Shown: positions 5,629 to 42,705, counted from the first letter of the stretch. The stretch is 42,705 bases of DNA from a virus (IMGVR_UViG_2778261632_000005:1-42705), one strand, 5' to 3'. A program made the numbers and translations. Notes: a model not told the origin generated them from the sequence alone.

Positions 5629-5705
5629 TGGTGCAGCATGCAGGATTCGAACCTGCGACCCACGGCTTAGAAGGCCGCTGCTCTATCCATCTGAGCTAAT
5701 GCCAC
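5629..5705 (-). tRNA. tRNA-Arg (anticodon UCU), prophage-borne
   Basis: 77-nt cloverleaf read on the minus strand: D-arm GCTC/GAGC, anticodon loop CUUCUAA, T-arm GCAGG-UUCGAAU-CCUGC, 3' ACCA; the acceptor stem has two adjacent G-U pairs. Confidence 0.8.
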
Positions 5706-6798: not shown

Positions 6799-7458
6799 TT
6801 AGATGTTCTGCGTTATCTGAACAACTTTGCCTACAATGCGGCAATTGCCATCAATGGGGATCGGCTTAAAGGCGGGATTAAGCGGCATGAGATATGAGTA
6901 AGGGCTATCCCAAACAAGTTTCTTCACAGTCGCTTCTGCTGAACCATCAAGTATTGCAACGACAATTTTCCCATACAGGTCATCAAGTTGTCCGTAATGT
7001 GGCTCAACAATAACGATTGAGCCCTCCGGAATTGATGGAAGTCCATGTGGGTTAGTCATTGACTCACCACGAACTACCAATCCGAAAACTTCATCAGAAA
7101 CGTTTGCTGTGGTTTGAGTCCATGAAATCACATCAGTAAGCCTTGAACATGCATAGGTATCAGTCCATACCCCGGCCTGAACAGCAGAGATAATAGGAAC
7201 GGCGGTAGGTGGCTTCAGGTATGGGATAACTTTGGTGTCATCTTGAGTCTCATCACCCTTGCCGTAAAGAATCCATTCAGGAGTGGTCTGTAAAGCCATC
7301 GCTAGTTGGTGAAGGTTTTCTCCGTCAGGCTTAGTTGTACCGTTCTCCCATTTGGTAACGGACACTCTACTCACCCCAAGGCGTTTAGCCAGGGTCTGCT
7401 GAGTTATATCGAGCTGGACTCGCCGGGATCTTATTCGGTCTTTCATCTCTGTTTTCAT
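6799..7458 (-). CDS. cI: Prophage repressor, cI-like (HTH plus LexA-type S24 autopeptidase)
   Basis: N-terminal HTH (QQTLAKRLGVSRVSVTKWENG), Ala-Gly cleavage site (VQAGVW), Ser nucleophile GESM and Lys (TVKKL). Confidence 0.9.
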   Translation of the reverse strand: MKTEMKDRIRSRRVQLDITQQTLAKRLGVSRVSVTKWENGTTKPDGENLHQLAMALQTTPEWILYGKGDETQDDTKVIPYLKPPTAVPIISAVQAGVWTDTYACSRLTDVISWTQTTANVSDEVFGLVVRGESMTNPHGLPSIPEGSIVIVEPHYGQLDDLYGKIVVAILDGSAEATVKKLVWDSPYSYLMPLNPAFKPIPIDGNCRIVGKVVQITQNI

Positions 7459-10888: not shown

Positions 10889-11206
10889 GTGAACAAACTT
10901 ACCGTGAGACAAAGTGAAGTACTTGGTTCGATCGTTAACTATCAGCGCCGGTTCGGATTCCCTCCAACGATATGTGAACTGGCTGGGCTGATTGGTTGCT
11001 CATCACCGAACGCAGCAGCGGAGCATGTGAAGGCCATAGCGAAGAAGGGATATATCTCAGTAGCACCTGGAGTTTCCAGGGGGATCACCGTTATTTCAGG
11101 AAATGATGAGGCAGACGCGATATCGATCATCAAGTCACTCATTAACGGTGAGAGTGATTCAAGAGAACGCGCCTTGTCATGGCTGGAAGCGAGGGGTGTT
11201 CAGTAA
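10889..11206 (+). CDS. LexA N-terminal DNA-binding-domain-only protein
   Basis: 105 aa, GTG start with AAGGAG RBS; resembles the LexA winged-helix domain (FPPTICELAGLIG-SSPNAAAEHVKAIAKKGYI); no S24 peptidase domain. Confidence 0.7.
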   Translation: MNKLTVRQSEVLGSIVNYQRRFGFPPTICELAGLIGCSSPNAAAEHVKAIAKKGYISVAPGVSRGITVISGNDEADAISIIKSLINGESDSRERALSWLEARGVQ

Positions 11207-16753: not shown

Positions 16754-17017
16754 TCATTACAAAGCTCATCTGCTGGTGGACTATAAACAGATAGCATTAC
16801 AGCAGGCATTCACTGAGTGCCTGTGATAATGTCAAATTGTGGTGAATGCGCAGGCTGATGCGCGTGCAACAGCTACTCATTGAAACGGTAGTTATGTCGG
16901 AGTTCAGCACCGGCCACCACACCTAATTGAATTGTCAGTGGCTAGGGTAGCTCCTGAAAAGCGGCATCGTCACCGCCTGCCACTGATAACATGACGAGCA
17001 ACTAAGACGAGGTTGTG

Positions 17018-36417: not shown

Positions 36418-38514
36418 ATGACCACTTATAACACCGGCAATCCGCTGGGGTCTGCTGCTGCAAAAGATTTATACGATAACGCTCAGAACTTTGATCATCT
36501 GTCGAATGATCTTGAAAATGAGATGTGGCCTGACCGATTTGGGAAGAGCAGGTTAACTTGGCATGGAATGGAAAAAAGATACCAGGAAAAGCTGGTGTCT
36601 ATGGGGTGGGAACTGATTGATTCATTTCAGGGAGGAACTACGTTAACGAGGGCAGATCAGGCGTTGCGTTGGGAATTACCTGATGGGGATGGAGAGTATT
36701 ACCGCTGGGATGGCTCTCTGCCTAAAACAGTCCCTGCCGGTTCTACACCAGATTCAACAGGTGGTGTTGGCACTGGCGCATGGGTTGGAGTTGGTGATGC
36801 ATCTCTTAGATCTGATCTAACAAAATATGGTGCAACGGTTGACCAGATAGCGCATCGGGTTACAACACTGAAATCTTTTGAAGAGTTTGGTGCGATTGGA
36901 GATGGGGTTACTAATGATACAGCCTCGATGCTGGCAGCGCTGGAATGGCTGAAAGATGTCCCTTTCGGTAAATTGGTTGGCAGACCTGGCGCAAATTATC
37001 TAATCACACAAAGCCTCGTCATGAAATTTGACGGCTCATACACTCAAGATGTAACGTCAACTCGCTATCTGGATTTTACTGGGACAGTGATTGTGGCAGG
37101 CGCCGATAATATCACTTGCATTCGCATGAGCCATGATTTCTGCCATATCATCAATCCTGTAGTAATTAACCCAAATAACTATTCCGACGTTATCGCCTAC
37201 GCTATTGCACCAGAAACCGAATCTCAGACTACCATACGCGTGTCACAGCAATTCTGTGTAATGGAGAATCCACGAGCACGGGGAACTAAGATAGGCCTTA
37301 AGTTTAAACCAGGGCCTACAGTCGGTGGGAGTAATAGCGGTGCGTATTACCACTCAATTATGAATCCTAATTTTGAGAGAGTGGATTGCGGATTCTATTT
37401 CGAGCGCAGCGTAAGCGGAGACAATAACAACACAAGGATTCATATCTTCAATCCAGTTCATATAACCGGTAACTGTGCTTTTTGGATCGAAAGCACTGAC
37501 TCACTACGCGTTTACGGTGGATCATGTGAAAATATCACATTGGGAACCTGGCCGGCTGACGTGCCATGCGCAGTCCGTGTTGTAAAAACAGTAAGCACAG
37601 ATACACAGGTCGCTGGAAACCTACATTTCTACGGATATCTTGGAGAAGTTTGTCACAGAGCCTATCAAATAGATACAAATGTAGGAACCTACGAAAACTA
37701 CTTTGATTGGAAATGGGTATTAATTAATGAAAACCCATATCGCGCACCAGGACAGGATGGGAATTTCGTAGCACGATTTGATGGGGAAATTCTTAGTAGT
37801 AGCTGGGACAACAGTGCTCTTAACGTAGTAGGGTGTAGAAACCCACATACAGGACATCAGGCAATAATCATCCAAAATCCAGATGAGACGCCAGCAGAAC
37901 TTTGGAGTAATACTGGGTGGAAATTTACCGCAACAATTTACGATTGCCCGGCACAAAATTTACAACATAGTAATAGCCATGAACAGATATTAGGGGCATT
38001 GTATGCTGGATTGACGCTTACAACCTATCCTGATAGCAGGAGAATAATGTTAACAAGCAAGGAGGGGGCTGATGGGGTTGAGAGACCACAAAATGATCTG
38101 ATAATTAATGGATTTAACAGGCTATGTGCAGAAAATGATAATGATACCGCTCTTGGTGATTCTGATAGACGGTGGAGTGTTGTTTATGCAGCTACTAGTT
38201 CAATAGTTACATCTGATGAGGAGCATAAAACCTCTTTTCTATCAGATGATAATACTTTAGAAAGAGAGAAGAAGGCAGCTAAGGAAATTAAAAGCTGTAT
38301 ATTTCGGTATAAGTTTAAAAAAAGCATTGATAAAAAAGGAGAGGGGGCCCGTCTTCATTATGGAGTGGGGGCGCAAACTGTTGGCGAAATTATGAGGAAG
38401 TATGACCTGAATCCGGATAATTATGCTTTTTGGTGCAGAAACAAAACAAATGAAGGCGATAGGTATGGTATCAGATACGAAGAGTTAATTATGTTTCTGA
38501 TGGTTAACGCATAA
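36418..38514 (+). CDS. Tailspike / side tail fibre with C-terminal intramolecular chaperone-like domain
   Basis: 698 aa; central region looks like a beta-helix depolymerase domain; C-terminal 110 aa resembles peptidase-S74 autoproteolytic chaperone domains (TSSIVTSDEEHKT ... GARLHYGVGAQTVGEIM ... YGIRYEELIMF). Confidence 0.6.
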   Translation: MTTYNTGNPLGSAAAKDLYDNAQNFDHLSNDLENEMWPDRFGKSRLTWHGMEKRYQEKLVSMGWELIDSFQGGTTLTRADQALRWELPDGDGEYYRWDGSLPKTVPAGSTPDSTGGVGTGAWVGVGDASLRSDLTKYGATVDQIAHRVTTLKSFEEFGAIGDGVTNDTASMLAALEWLKDVPFGKLVGRPGANYLITQSLVMKFDGSYTQDVTSTRYLDFTGTVIVAGADNITCIRMSHDFCHIINPVVINPNNYSDVIAYAIAPETESQTTIRVSQQFCVMENPRARGTKIGLKFKPGPTVGGSNSGAYYHSIMNPNFERVDCGFYFERSVSGDNNNTRIHIFNPVHITGNCAFWIESTDSLRVYGGSCENITLGTWPADVPCAVRVVKTVSTDTQVAGNLHFYGYLGEVCHRAYQIDTNVGTYENYFDWKWVLINENPYRAPGQDGNFVARFDGEILSSSWDNSALNVVGCRNPHTGHQAIIIQNPDETPAELWSNTGWKFTATIYDCPAQNLQHSNSHEQILGALYAGLTLTTYPDSRRIMLTSKEGADGVERPQNDLIINGFNRLCAENDNDTALGDSDRRWSVVYAATSSIVTSDEEHKTSFLSDDNTLEREKKAAKEIKSCIFRYKFKKSIDKKGEGARLHYGVGAQTVGEIMRKYDLNPDNYAFWCRNKTNEGDRYGIRYEELIMFLMVNA

Positions 38515-38558: not shown

Positions 38559-39995
38559 TTAGAATCTAATAACTACAATATTATCAACGAGATATATTGC
38601 AAATACATTACCTGCATATAAGGTGGTTTTGTCATTTGCTTTTAGTAAAATTTCATCACGTTTATCATTATTTGCATAGGTAATATCATTTAGCCCGTTC
38701 CTCATTAAAATAAATCTTCCACCATCATAACCCCAAGAAAATGTGTCAAGCATCATGTTATTCATGAATGGATAAATGTTAATGGTTGACTCCATGACTC
38801 CAGAATGTTGTGGGCGCCCATCAATAATAAATTCTTTATGCTTTGATAAATTCAACCTGTCAAGATTACTCACTATCCTGGTTGCTAAAGATTCTGCATA
38901 TCTAAAATCTTCTCGCACTGCATTTGTAGATGCACATAAAAAAAGATAATTAGTAAAGTAAAAAAATACCGCTGGCGCAAGCCATAGCCATTTACGTTTA
39001 AAAGAACAGCACAACGCATAAAGACAGAAGAAGGATGCAGCAGAAATCCCTATAATTGTTCGTGGTATGATTGATGGATTTTGCCCATACACTCCAACTC
39101 CTGGTATAAACGTGACAAGTGCACATAAAACAATAACTATCGTCAGAAAGGTAAATAATGGTTTTGTTGATCTAAAGCACATAACGCATACAGCAACAAC
39201 AAACGCAGCGCACATGATTGCAATCGGGTATAAAAATGGTGAGTCTAGTAGTTTTAAAATGAGTATGTATGAGTTTTTGTAATTATTAAGAACTGTTTCA
39301 AGTCCCGAATAAGTCAATGGAACGATTTTATTGAAATTCAAAAAGTAATAACTTACATTAGTTATTGGGATAATAACTTTAAGGTATGCTATAGTGCCTA
39401 AAAGAAATGTTAAAGCTCTAATTATCAATACTTTGGTTATGTTTTTATAATTTTCTTTTTTTACATAAGCTCCCATGAATATCTCAATAGCGGATAGACA
39501 TATAAATAGTGCTATTGCAGCTTGGTAAAGAGAAAGGCTGGCAACAAGAGCCGTTACTGACAAAACAAAAGAAGATATTTTGTTAGTGTGTAAAATATAA
39601 GGCGTAATTGCCATGGTTACAGATAGAACCATAAAGAAGGAATCATATCTGAATAATAAATTAGAAACAAAAAAAGGAGATGCTAAGAAGCATAAAGATA
39701 GCACTATTGCTTTAATCCCTTTGCTCCCTATAAAGTATTCACATACTTTTAAAGATACTGCACTATAAAGGATTAATGCCAGAATTGTCATTCCTGGGAA
39801 GTAGTCAGGAAGAACATCTCCTGTAGTAATTGTTCTATATATAGCTTCTGCAAGAGGTCGTCCATCTCCTTGCCATCCATAATATGACCATACCGACCTA
39901 AATATGTCGTCATTATAATAACTAGTTCCTAACAGTAATGGAATGGCATAAAATAATGTCAGTCCAGCAGCAATAACTATATGTCTATTAGGCAT
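38559..39995 (-). CDS. Serotype-specific O-antigen glucosyltransferase, GtrC-like polytopic membrane protein
   Basis: 478 aa, about 10 predicted TM helices, strongly AT-rich coding sequence, immediately downstream of gtrA-gtrB. Confidence 0.75.
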   Translation of the reverse strand: MPNRHIVIAAGLTLFYAIPLLLGTSYYNDDIFRSVWSYYGWQGDGRPLAEAIYRTITTGDVLPDYFPGMTILALILYSAVSLKVCEYFIGSKGIKAIVLSLCFLASPFFVSNLLFRYDSFFMVLSVTMAITPYILHTNKISSFVLSVTALVASLSLYQAAIALFICLSAIEIFMGAYVKKENYKNITKVLIIRALTFLLGTIAYLKVIIPITNVSYYFLNFNKIVPLTYSGLETVLNNYKNSYILILKLLDSPFLYPIAIMCAAFVVAVCVMCFRSTKPLFTFLTIVIVLCALVTFIPGVGVYGQNPSIIPRTIIGISAASFFCLYALCCSFKRKWLWLAPAVFFYFTNYLFLCASTNAVREDFRYAESLATRIVSNLDRLNLSKHKEFIIDGRPQHSGVMESTINIYPFMNNMMLDTFSWGYDGGRFILMRNGLNDITYANNDKRDEILLKANDKTTLYAGNVFAIYLVDNIVVIRF

Positions 39996-39999
39996 GATA

Positions 40000-40920
40000 T
40001 TACCTCTTATTCTTCTTTATAAGATATTTTGGCCTTTTTTTGGTTTCTAAATATATTCTACCAATATACTCACCAAGTACTCCAATTCCTATTAATTGAA
40101 TTCCACCAAGAAACAGAATAGACACTAGCAGGGATGGATAGCCCCGTACGGCGTTACCAAACGCTAAAGTGTTGAATATCATCCAGGCGCCATACAAAAA
40201 AGCGCAACCGGCTACCACTAGCCCAATATACGTCCAGATGCGAAGCGGGAAGGTCGAGAAAGAAGTTATGCCTTCTAGTGCTAAATTCCATAGTTTCCAG
40301 CCATTAAATTTTGAGTCTCCGGCAACACGTTCAGCTCTTGCATACTCAACAACATCAATTTTCCCACCAACCCATGACAAAACACCTTTCATGAAGAGAT
40401 TGCGCTCAGGAAGCAGTTTGATGTTTTCAACAACTTCGCGTGACATCAGGCGAAAATCACCCACGTTCTCTTCAATTTTTGGGTTGCTAATTTTGTTGTG
40501 TAGCTTGTAGAACCACTCAGCAGATTTGCGCTTTAGCCTTCCATCGGTAGAGCGGTCTGTTCTTTTAGCCAGAACCATATCAGCGCCATCCTGCCACTTA
40601 GCAATGAGGTGCGGGATGACATCGATAGGGTCTTGCAGATCAACATCGATTGGGATGACTGCTTCGCCGGTAGCATTATCGAGACCTGCGAATAGGGCAG
40701 GCTCTTTACCAAAGTTTCTGGTGAAAGATAGAGGTACCACCAATTTGTCAGAGACAGCAAGTGCATTGATGATGGATTCTGTTGAATCGCTGCTCCCGTC
40801 GTTAATAAATACAATCTCAATGTCGTACTCTTTTAGGCCTTCAAACTCGCGTACCGTTTTATAAAATATAGGTATTGTGGCCTCTTCGTTAAAGACCGGA
40901 ACAACTAAAGAAATTTTCAT
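40000..40920 (-). CDS. gtrB: Bactoprenol glucosyltransferase GtrB (GT2)
   Basis: 306 aa; GT2 motifs ([24 protein letters not shown]) and two C-terminal TM helices. Confidence 0.85.
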
Positions 40921-41279
40921 TTCGCATCCCTAAAGACAATGAATTTCGAGTAAATAAATCCGCATACCAAGCTGATCGCGGAAAAAGCAACCAGGGTGAC
41001 AATAGGTGGGAGTGCGCACAAATCAGCCCCCCAGCCAACAGCAGCGCTTAATGATCCCATAAAACCGACATATAACATGTAGCGCAGCATTGTTGTCGAT
41101 GAATTGAATGTGAATTTGGCATTGGCATAAAAACTGAACGATACAGCTACGGCAAATCCAGCCAGGTTCGCTAGAGCCTGATTTGTGTGCAATACGTAGA
41201 TGCAGATTGCAAACACAACCCAGTGGATAAGCGTATTGATGATGCCGATAGATGTGTACTTAGCGAATAGCTTTAACAT
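40917..41279 (-). CDS. gtrA: GtrA flippase-like small membrane protein
   Basis: 120 aa from MLKLFAKYT, 4 predicted TM helices; stop overlaps the gtrB start; ORF open to 41342. Confidence 0.8.
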
Positions 41280-41495
41280 TATAAAAATCAGTGAATTCTT
41301 AGAGGCCGAAAGTTTAGCATTTGAAAGTGGATCGATCGACATATCATGTTAATTTGGTGAGACAAAAACGGGATACACAAAGCTTTGCATCGGTTTGCAA
41401 GGCTTTGCAGTGCCCACCTATGACACATTCTCATGAAGAGCTCAGCAGTAATTATTGATAGGCAGCGCCGCATTGATCTGCAATCATTTTAAAAC

Positions 41496-41515
41496 TACTG
41501 TATATAAAAACAGTA
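41496..41515 (+). promoter_or_regulatory. LexA operator (SOS box)
   Basis: TACTGTATATAAAAACAGTA matches CTGT-N8-ACAG; lies 18 nt upstream of the next ORF. Confidence 0.8.
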
Positions 41516-41532
41516 AAAGATTGGTGAAAATC

Positions 41533-41772
41533 ATGCCACGCCGTTCAGATATTAACGCTGCATTTTCGTCAGCAGTACAACAAAACCAGAAAGGATATCA
41601 GTGCTTACGCACAGACGACTTCATCCGAGAGTTAGCGAAAGTGCACTGGCATTTCAGCCGTGTCGATGCTAACTCCTGGATAGAGCGATACCAGCCAGAT
41701 TTTGCCGACAAGACCACGGACAACAGTGATAACCGTTACTGGATCCTGCGCAATATGGGAAGGGTATTCTAA
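41533..41772 (+). CDS. Small SOS-box-preceded protein upstream of a UmuD-like gene (ImpC-like by position)
   Basis: 79 aa; stop overlaps the downstream ATG; the ImpC label is an inference from operon architecture, not from sequence. Confidence 0.45.
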   Translation: MPRRSDINAAFSSAVQQNQKGYQCLRTDDFIRELAKVHWHFSRVDANSWIERYQPDFADKTTDNSDNRYWILRNMGRVF

Positions 41773-42160
41773 TGGGATTTACTTCACCTGCAGCAGATTA
41801 CGTTGAAACAAGGATTTCCCTTGATCAGCAGTTTATCAGTCAGCCCGCAGCGACTTACTTTATGCGAGCATCACGTTCACATTTCAGGTAAGGGATAATC
41901 CTGGGGGCGCTGCTTGTTGTGATGCGTCACTTTCTCCATGTGATGGCTCGTTGCTGATATGCGCGATAGACGGAGAATTCAGGATCAAGCGATATCGGAC
42001 TCATCCTCAGCCCCACCTGGTTAATCTGGAGAACGGGAGAAGGGAGGCGCTGCCAGCAGATGATGACGGTTACAGTTCTGCACCCGCTATATTCGGAGTG
42101 ATCACGTACATCATTAATGATGCCAGGAACGCGGAGTTTGATGACTGCCCGGTAATGTGA
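41772..42160 (+). pseudogene. UmuD/ImpA-like S24 peptidase gene, apparently disrupted
   Basis: N-terminus MGFTSPAADYVETRISLDQQF...ATYFMRAS ends at TAA (41889-41891); the C-terminal part (AIDGEFRIKRY...FGVITYIIND) continues in another frame; no umuC-like gene follows. Confidence 0.6.
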
Positions 42161-42528
42161 ATAGCTTAAATTGTGCGAGGATTTTAACCTCATTCACCTG
42201 ACTCGTTATGGCTATGTTGAGACCAAAAAATATTTCACCATTGTACCTCCTAGATGATTATAAGTTATTGATTAAGTTGATCTTAAAATCATGAATTATT
42301 GGCGAAAAAACGGTGTAACTTGTTGATAGTGCTTGATAACACGCATGATTTAAAATCCCTTTATCGTGAAAGGGCTGATAGGTACAGGCACTTGTTTTTG
42401 CCCTCTAAAACGGTTATCAAAACCAAAAAACACACATTGATAATCAATCGGTTAGGGGAATGCTGAAAGCCAGTTGATTTACAATAAAATTATAGAATTA
42501 TTTTTATTTATCATGTGGTTGTATATGA

Positions 42529-42705
42529 AGCATCTAACTACTGTTACGCCATATGGGTTGGACTGAAGCGGCTGACCTGATTGTTAAAGGTATGGAAGGC
42601 GCAATCAATGCGAAGACCGTAACCTATGACTTCGAACGTCTGATGGAAGGCGCTAAACTGCTGAAATGTTCAGAGTTTGGTGACGCGATCATCAAGAATA
42701 TGTAA
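42529..42705 (+). pseudogene. icd: 3' fragment of the isocitrate dehydrogenase gene (icd), prophage junction remnant
   Basis: Encodes [55 protein letters not shown], recalled as near-identical to the E. coli Icd C-terminus; an in-frame TAA lies immediately upstream, so only the 3' end is present. Confidence 0.8.

Follow-up and report, generated by a model that had tools for sequence, protein, structure and literature searches.

The stretch of viral DNA analyzed here (IMGVR_UViG_2778261632_000005:1-42705; 42,705 nt, referred to as the window) is a lambdoid prophage of E. coli integrated in icd. The locus under study occupies positions 41496 to 42160, where a LexA operator is followed on the plus strand by an intact gene for a 79-amino-acid (79-aa) protein and then by a humD pseudogene. 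Together they form the last coding unit ahead of a displaced 3' fragment of icd (42553-42705, +), which places the locus at the right end of the prophage, as had originally been predicted. This fragment, whose translated open reading frame (ORF) matches the C-terminus of isocitrate dehydrogenase, marks the right prophage/host junction and is separated from the end of humD by about 390 bp of non-coding DNA; PGAP labels its counterpart in the near-identical prophage of E. coli PCP07014 'isocitrate/isopropylmalate family dehydrogenase, missing N-terminus'. On the opposite side, a 253-bp intergenic region separates the locus from a divergent gtrA/gtrB/gtrC-like O-antigen glucosylation cluster (38559-41279, -). 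Apart from an insertion of ISEc8, the PCP07014 prophage is 99.7-99.95% identical to the window. In PCP07014 this 2.4-kb element of the IS66 family separates the tail-fibre gene from the gtr cluster (L008 6792-9235), and BLAST and ORF lists place no ISEc8 at the corresponding site of the window (about 38353-38360), so the window represents a different isolate of the same prophage.

The gamma-proteobacterial SOS box is a 20-bp palindrome, TACTG(TA)5CAGTA, with invariant CTG...CAG arms, and the sequence TACTGTATATAAAAACAGTA at 41496-41515 (+) conforms to this definition, differing from the consensus TACTGTATATATATACAGTA at two positions. It is the single match in the window even when three mismatches are allowed (0.01 expected by chance), and none of 100 shuffled sequences contained a match within three mismatches. 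The original prediction of a near-perfect LexA operator is upheld by this unique 20-mer, which is identical to the LexA boxes of E. coli umuD and sbmC (PMC3009722, Table 4).

The left half of the box, TACTGT, doubles as a -10-like hexamer, and a -35-like hexamer, TTGATC (41473-41478, +), lies 17 nt upstream of it. Both hexamers are weak, each matching at 4 of 6 positions, and a generic promoter scan did not report the site because only 8 of the 12 positions match; the assignment of an SOS promoter rests mainly on the conservation of hexamer and box across homologous loci. Of 122 distinct homologous upstream regions, 114 carry a LexA box in the corresponding position, and 99 of these 114 have TTGnnn 17 to 18 nt before TACTGT, with TTGATC at exactly 17 nt in 84 of the 99 (84/114 box-bearing regions). 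From this arrangement we infer that the SOS box overlaps the -10 region of a conserved promoter, TTGATC-17 nt-TACTGT, at which LexA would bind and from which the SOS response would induce transcription. A Shine-Dalgarno-like GGTGA (41523-41527, +), 5 nt before the start codon of the small ORF, would by its sequence serve that gene.

Downstream of the box, as claimed from the sequence, lies the 79-aa ORF (41533-41772, +), which begins with ATG at 41533 and ends with a TAA at 41770-41772 that overlaps the humD start codon at 41772 (TAATG). Its product matches phrog_3893 (4e-41), a PHROG annotated as of unknown function, and has the topology H1-b1-H2-H3-b2-wing-b3, the order of elements of a winged helix, so it is predicted to be a stand-alone winged-helix protein. 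No Pfam or NCBIfam family matched it significantly (the top match, DUF7669, had E=0.085, below the cut-off), and a profile search of PDB sequences returned only chance-level matches. The records examined give no annotated function for it, and the literature searched contained no description.

Megablast of positions 41400 to 42300 against the phage collection returned no match, so relatives had to be sought at the protein level. By tblastn, the small ORF is present in 46 phage records, including mEp390, HK225, HK140, Eeyore, Flotzy, and Klebsiella prophages, as well as the Erwinia phages Midgardsormr38 and vB_EhrS_59 and the Cronobacter phage phiES15. A profile search recovered 1092 proteins of the family, none with a Pfam domain and some mislabelled 'DNA polymerase V', and an exhaustive HMM search of 1.84 billion representatives yielded only 212 clusters, nearly all of about 79 aa. 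With dN/dS values of 0.12-0.19 against close relatives (dS is saturated beyond these), the small ORF is, judged by its substitutions, under purifying selection. Its Gly-rich C-terminal codons double as the Shine-Dalgarno sequence (GGAAGGG, GGAGG) for the gene that follows, which accounts for their conservation.

The junction between the two genes, where the small protein ends in ...GRVF and its partner begins with MGFPSPA, suggested a split precursor of the LexA or UmuDAb kind. In Acinetobacter UmuDAb, a DNA-binding-type domain is likewise tied to a UmuD-like S24 core, and PMC4807011 describes this N-terminal domain as needed to repress damage-inducible genes; in the window module the winged-helix and UmuD'-like parts are instead separate genes. 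The small protein has no similarity to LexA_DNA_bind, and there is no genuine fused homolog among the 212 representative clusters (the long matches P0199, P0248, and P0316 look like frameshift read-throughs), so the split-precursor idea lacks support.

The second gene (41772-42160, +) belongs to the P1 HumD family of UmuD' analogues. In a three-frame translation, the ATG at 41772 opens MGFTSPAADYVETRISLDQQFISQPAATYFMRASRSHFR, which ends at a TAA at 41889-41891; the same frame then reads GIILGALLVV, and the rest of HumD, DASLSPCDGSLLICAIDGEF...DDCPVM, continues in another frame to a TGA at 42158-42160. The intact ortholog in strain MB20 scores 224.4 bits on the NCBIfam equivalog NF051876 (HumD; cut-off, 120 bits), covering positions 1-129 of 129, and only about 10 positions distinguish it from the frame-repaired product of the window. 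The MB20 protein is 70.5% identical to P1 HumD and aligns with UmuD' (PDB 1UMU) from Gly25 of UmuD onwards (1.5e-22), such that the Gly of its MGF... start pairs with residue 1 of UmuD' in that structure.

Proteins of the self-cleaving UmuD/MucA/ImpA type have an N-terminal pro-peptide, a Cys/Ala-Gly cleavage site, and a Ser60/Lys97 dyad. The HumD ortholog has neither the pro-peptide with its cleavage site nor the dyad, its Lys97 being kept and its catalytic Ser60 being replaced by His37. Because the 24-residue pro-peptide is absent and His stands in place of Ser60, RecA-mediated self-cleavage would be neither needed nor possible, and the ortholog is, as read from its alignment, a genetically 'pre-cleaved' UmuD' analogue. 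The original description of the gene as UmuD/ImpA-like was thus right as to its UmuD'-like homology and wrong as to its type, which is that of P1 HumD with His for Ser60 rather than that of self-cleaving UmuD, ImpA, or MucA.

In the window, the run of about 129 codons that makes up a HumD gene is interrupted twice, as mapped on a DNA alignment with five intact or differently damaged homologs (MB20, Nissle 1917, L017, HK140, and P1). The first lesion is an in-frame nonsense mutation, TAA for GAA at Glu40 (41889-41891, +), caused by a G>T substitution; codon 40 is GAA in MB20, Nissle 1917, L017, and HK140 and GAG in P1. The second, about 30 nt downstream, is a 1-nt deletion in codon 50 (41920-41921, +), evident from the alignments and the three-frame translations, which changes GTTGTTGAT to GTTGTGAT by loss of one T from a TT doublet, not a long homopolymer, and puts the remaining 79 codons out of frame. 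Translation of humD would yield only a 39-aa stub, and the gene is, as read from its frames, a HumD-family pseudogene rather than a functional member. The predicted UmuD-like frame with a TAA at 41889-41891 and a C-terminal part in another frame is therefore present, except that the TAA arises from a separate substitution and not from the frameshift.

Of the two explanations first offered for this disruption, a decaying translesion-synthesis gene and a sequencing frameshift, decay is favored. That humD is really intact and its disruption an artefact of sequencing or assembly might be suspected from the single-base deletion, a common type of error, and yet it is very improbable: the other lesion is a substitution that creates a stop codon, the deletion lies outside any long homopolymer, and both are common to two further E. 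coli assemblies, while an intact ortholog exists in MB20. Megablast against E. coli complete genomes matched the locus region in 54 genomes, two of which, PCP07014 and 23CRST032 (one from Galapagos seawater, the other a human isolate), share the 901-bp region with the window at 100% identity; the window is itself a further isolate, lacking ISEc8. PGAP annotated the identical PCP07014 sequence as 'HumD family translesion DNA polymerase; frameshifted; internal stop', between a 79-aa hypothetical protein and a partial icd gene. Moreover, relatives carry other, independent inactivations (L017, L047, L050, L051, and L061), and BTP1 and the Stx phages retain only fragmented or partial humD matches. 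More improbable still, to the point of being negligible, is a programmed recoding in which stop read-through combined with a frameshift would still produce full-length HumD. Nothing favors it beyond the stop and the change of frame themselves; two distinct recoding events, 30 nt from each other, would both have to occur, and at these sites the intact orthologs have an ordinary sense codon and keep their frame. We rejected recoding on the ground that no homolog has the two unrelated lesions.

The decay of humD is recent, as judged from its divergence. MB20, in which both genes are intact, shares 92.6% DNA identity with the window over the full 901 bp; an intact humD ortholog is also present in Nissle 1917; and the frame-repaired humD has a dN/dS of 0.09 against MB20. 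The window copy nevertheless already carries a Pro>Thr substitution in GFPSPA (MGFTSPA), a motif that is conserved elsewhere.

Damage to humD is recurrent, since relatives show independent forms of it. In L017 (2237-2629), an IMG/VR relative whose small ORF is 96% identical to that of the window, the UmuD'-like gene carries a different nonsense mutation, TCA>TAA at Ser53, and neither of the window lesions. UmuD'-like partners are truncated in L047, L050, L051, and L061. BTP1 (L016 1501-1873) matches humD in two tblastn pieces at a place where no gene is annotated, and here too the neighbouring gtr cluster is divergent; in Stx phages the match is confined to the C-terminal portion of HumD.

On this comparison of loci, the combination of a LexA box with a small winged-helix gene and a UmuD'-like gene recurs as a module among the temperate phages of Enterobacterales. 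In all 10 annotated loci, a strong LexA box precedes the small-ORF ATG by 11 to 23 nt, and the small-ORF stop overlaps or abuts a gene starting with (M/V)GFPSPA in 9 of them, the exception being HK225, which has no partner. In the IMG/VR set of 80 loci, a box of the form CTG-N10-CAG is present within 80 nt in 76, and a UmuD'-like partner follows at a -1 overlap in about 78 of the 79 that include downstream sequence. Of 37 loci in genomes that span more than twelve genera, 31 have the box and about 30 the partner. Far from being incidental, the 79-aa ORF is conserved as the leading member of a two-gene module that is widespread.

The partners are of two types. The 129-aa HumD occurs in the window, in MB20 and HK140, and in 8 of the 80 IMG/VR loci. 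The commoner type, found in most IMG/VR loci from L018 to L095, is 103-110 aa long and keeps the N-terminal arm GFPSPAxDY (MGFPSPAxDYxE); the one short partner tested, mEp390 gp26 (L004 2740-3060), had no match to Pfam Peptidase_S24. Since one clade of small ORFs, together with its box, pairs with either type, recombination appears to take place at the conserved boundary between the small ORF and its partner. The small ORF occurs without a UmuD'-like partner in HK225, L104, L116, L119, and L124. At another locus (L097 3830-5100, from an ENA ERZ1332972 contig), the TTGATC promoter, the LexA box, and the small ORF are followed by a umuC-like gene with an IMS domain and no UmuD'-like gene intervenes; this junction is uncertain because the long-read assembly is full of frameshifts. 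A divergent dinI-like gene occupies the place of the window's gtrA in HK140, mEp390, Eeyore, and the humD locus of Nissle 1917.

No umuC-like gene follows humD, in agreement with the original observation: a six-frame search of the window for the UmuC N-terminal motif found none, and PGAP lists no umuC in the PCP07014 prophage. An umuDC-type operon has a Y-family polymerase gene (umuC, mucB, or impB) immediately downstream, where the window has non-coding DNA and then the icd fragment. The HumD-type loci that we examined (P1, N15, HK140, and MB20) all have no adjacent umuC, so its absence is the norm for the HumD family and not a sign of decay. The locus shares with E. coli umuDC an identical 20-bp LexA operator and a gene product homologous to UmuD' (1e-22, PDB 1UMU), and it differs in having none of umuC, the 24-residue pro-peptide, and Ser60.

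The closest characterized system is the humD locus of P1, and the closest sequenced relatives are the modules of HK140, MB20, and mEp390. In P1, as in the window, a LexA box stands just upstream of a gene for a 129-aa UmuD' analogue that starts at the equivalent of UmuD Gly25, and there is no umuC. The P1 GenBank record marks a LexA site just ahead of humD and credits HumD with functional complementation of UmuD', and the title of McLenigan et al. 1999, as cited in PMC4713147, has P1 HumD replacing UmuD' in SOS mutagenesis. Unlike the window, P1 has no 79-aa leader gene, its humD comes right after the box and is intact, and a 190-aa lxr gene is divergent. We also considered and rejected the identity of the small ORF with P1 Lxr, given the divergent orientation and 190-aa length of lxr and the position of humD directly after the P1 box; P1 is not among the small-ORF tblastn matches listed (40 of the 46 records). 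The UmuD-like genes N15 gene 26, phiKO2 gp23, HK140 gp27-gp28, and mEp390 gp26 occupy the same position between the tail-fibre genes and attP/integrase. HK140 has exactly the layout of the window (box, small ORF, and the 129-aa HumD type), whereas N15 has no small ORF and mEp390 pairs it with a divergent 106-aa partner.

The locus is, in all likelihood, a LexA-repressed, damage-inducible accessory operon at the prophage right end whose humD has been inactivated twice, 'accessory operon' being a description of its architecture and not of a phenotype. In a lysogen, host LexA would sit on the umuDC-identical operator, overlapping the -10 region of the TTGATC-17-TACTGT promoter, until DNA damage led to LexA cleavage and transcription of the operon. 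The first gene would yield the intact 79-aa winged-helix protein, and the second, when intact, HumD, a ready-made UmuD' analogue for SOS mutagenesis; translation of the two is presumably coupled through the TAATG overlap. HumD would need host UmuC to function, because HumD loci carry no polymerase gene. With humD inactivated and only its stub left, the module as found in the window would now deliver only the small protein.

Other roles for the small protein and its partner can be weighed against this evidence. The module might not serve translesion synthesis at all, its UmuD'-like and winged-helix proteins instead binding RecA filaments or other SOS components and so tuning the SOS response or the timing of induction. 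The short partners that predominate, with their GFPSPAxDY arm and, in mEp390, no detectable S24 domain, fit such a role, as do the loss of the catalytic Ser from HumD itself, the frequency of dinI-like genes divergent at the same box, the presence in the same prophage of a LexA DNA-binding domain without a cleavage domain, and the binding of UmuD in the groove of the RecA filament (PMC9926225). Phage UmuD'-like proteins may also serve in processes other than translesion synthesis; still, we consider this role for the module unlikely, in that P1 HumD is described as complementing UmuD' (in the GenBank note and the title cited above) and at L097 the small ORF leads straight into a umuC-like polymerase gene. 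Less likely again, in our view, is a role for the 79-aa protein in coupling prophage induction to the SOS response as an antirepressor under LexA control, of the kind known from 186 (Tum), N15 (AntC), and Gifsy (GfoA/GfhA), with humD as a passenger. Like those proteins, which are often encoded near dinI homologs, it is small and produced in a temperate phage under a strong LexA box (PMC3121763), and it persists both in the five loci without a partner and in the window, where humD decays. Those antirepressors, however, act with repressors that do not self-cleave, and the window CI (6799-7458, -) combines HTH_3 with Peptidase_S24 (E=1.6e-22), an Ala-Gly site, the GESM serine, and the VKKL lysine, so it should cleave itself; the repressor of mEp390, another carrier of the module, is likewise annotated as LexA-family. 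Furthermore, no family library ties the small ORF to known antirepressors, its PHROG being one of unknown function, and its near-obligate pairing with UmuD'-like genes has no parallel in the antirepressor operons of PMC3121763, which contain no UmuD'-like gene and among which that of Gifsy is arranged as dinI-antirepressor-irsA (dinI-gfoA/gfhA-irsA) and lies elsewhere in the genome.

Somewhat less doubtful than either, though we would still bet against it, is the proposal that the 79-aa protein is itself the selected cargo, an SOS-induced factor that would work together with UmuD'-like proteins, and perhaps also with host UmuC or RecA, and might belong to one circuit with the LexA-domain protein of the prophage, so that the phage would rewire the damage response of its host. 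Compatible with this are the nearly constant pairing, across Enterobacterales, of the small ORF with a UmuD'-like gene that it usually overlaps, its integrity where the partner is dead or absent, and its position directly ahead of a umuC-like gene at one locus (L097). The LexA-domain protein is a 105-aa ORF with a GTG start just upstream of rusA (10889-11206, +), which is made up of a full-length LexA DNA-binding domain (Pfam PF01726; 5e-18; positions 1-65 of 65) with no S24 cleavage domain; its positional counterpart beside rusA in mEp390 is a 106-aa protein labelled 'transcriptional repressor'. Once host LexA had been cleaved, a look-alike of this kind could bind at SOS boxes, that at 41496 among them.

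Under the reading that we prefer, a damage-inducible operon whose humD has decayed, the locus is an ordinary, recently decayed member of the known HumD kind, and its small gene is the one element with no description in the literature searched. For the annotation of the window, this means chiefly that humD is genuine and was inactivated recently, that its SOS box is canonical, and that the locus should not be taken for an assembly error or a truncated umuDC operon. UmuD'-type proteins have an effect on mutagenesis after DNA damage, so a partner for them that phages conserve would bear on the influence of prophages over host mutation rates, and the window locus, in which only the small gene is intact, offers a convenient natural background for the action of that gene alone.

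Elsewhere in the element, the DNA cytosine methyltransferase gene of the early-left region (about 1716-2477 of the window) is, in PCP07014, a pseudogene with an internal stop according to PGAP; if the same holds in the window, this would be a second sign of decay. Within the prophage, close to its immunity region, is a gene for tRNA-Arg(TCT) (5629-5705, -), and positions 16935-16999 (+) match the Rfam int-alpA sRNA family with 43.2 bits, against a gathering score of 35.8.
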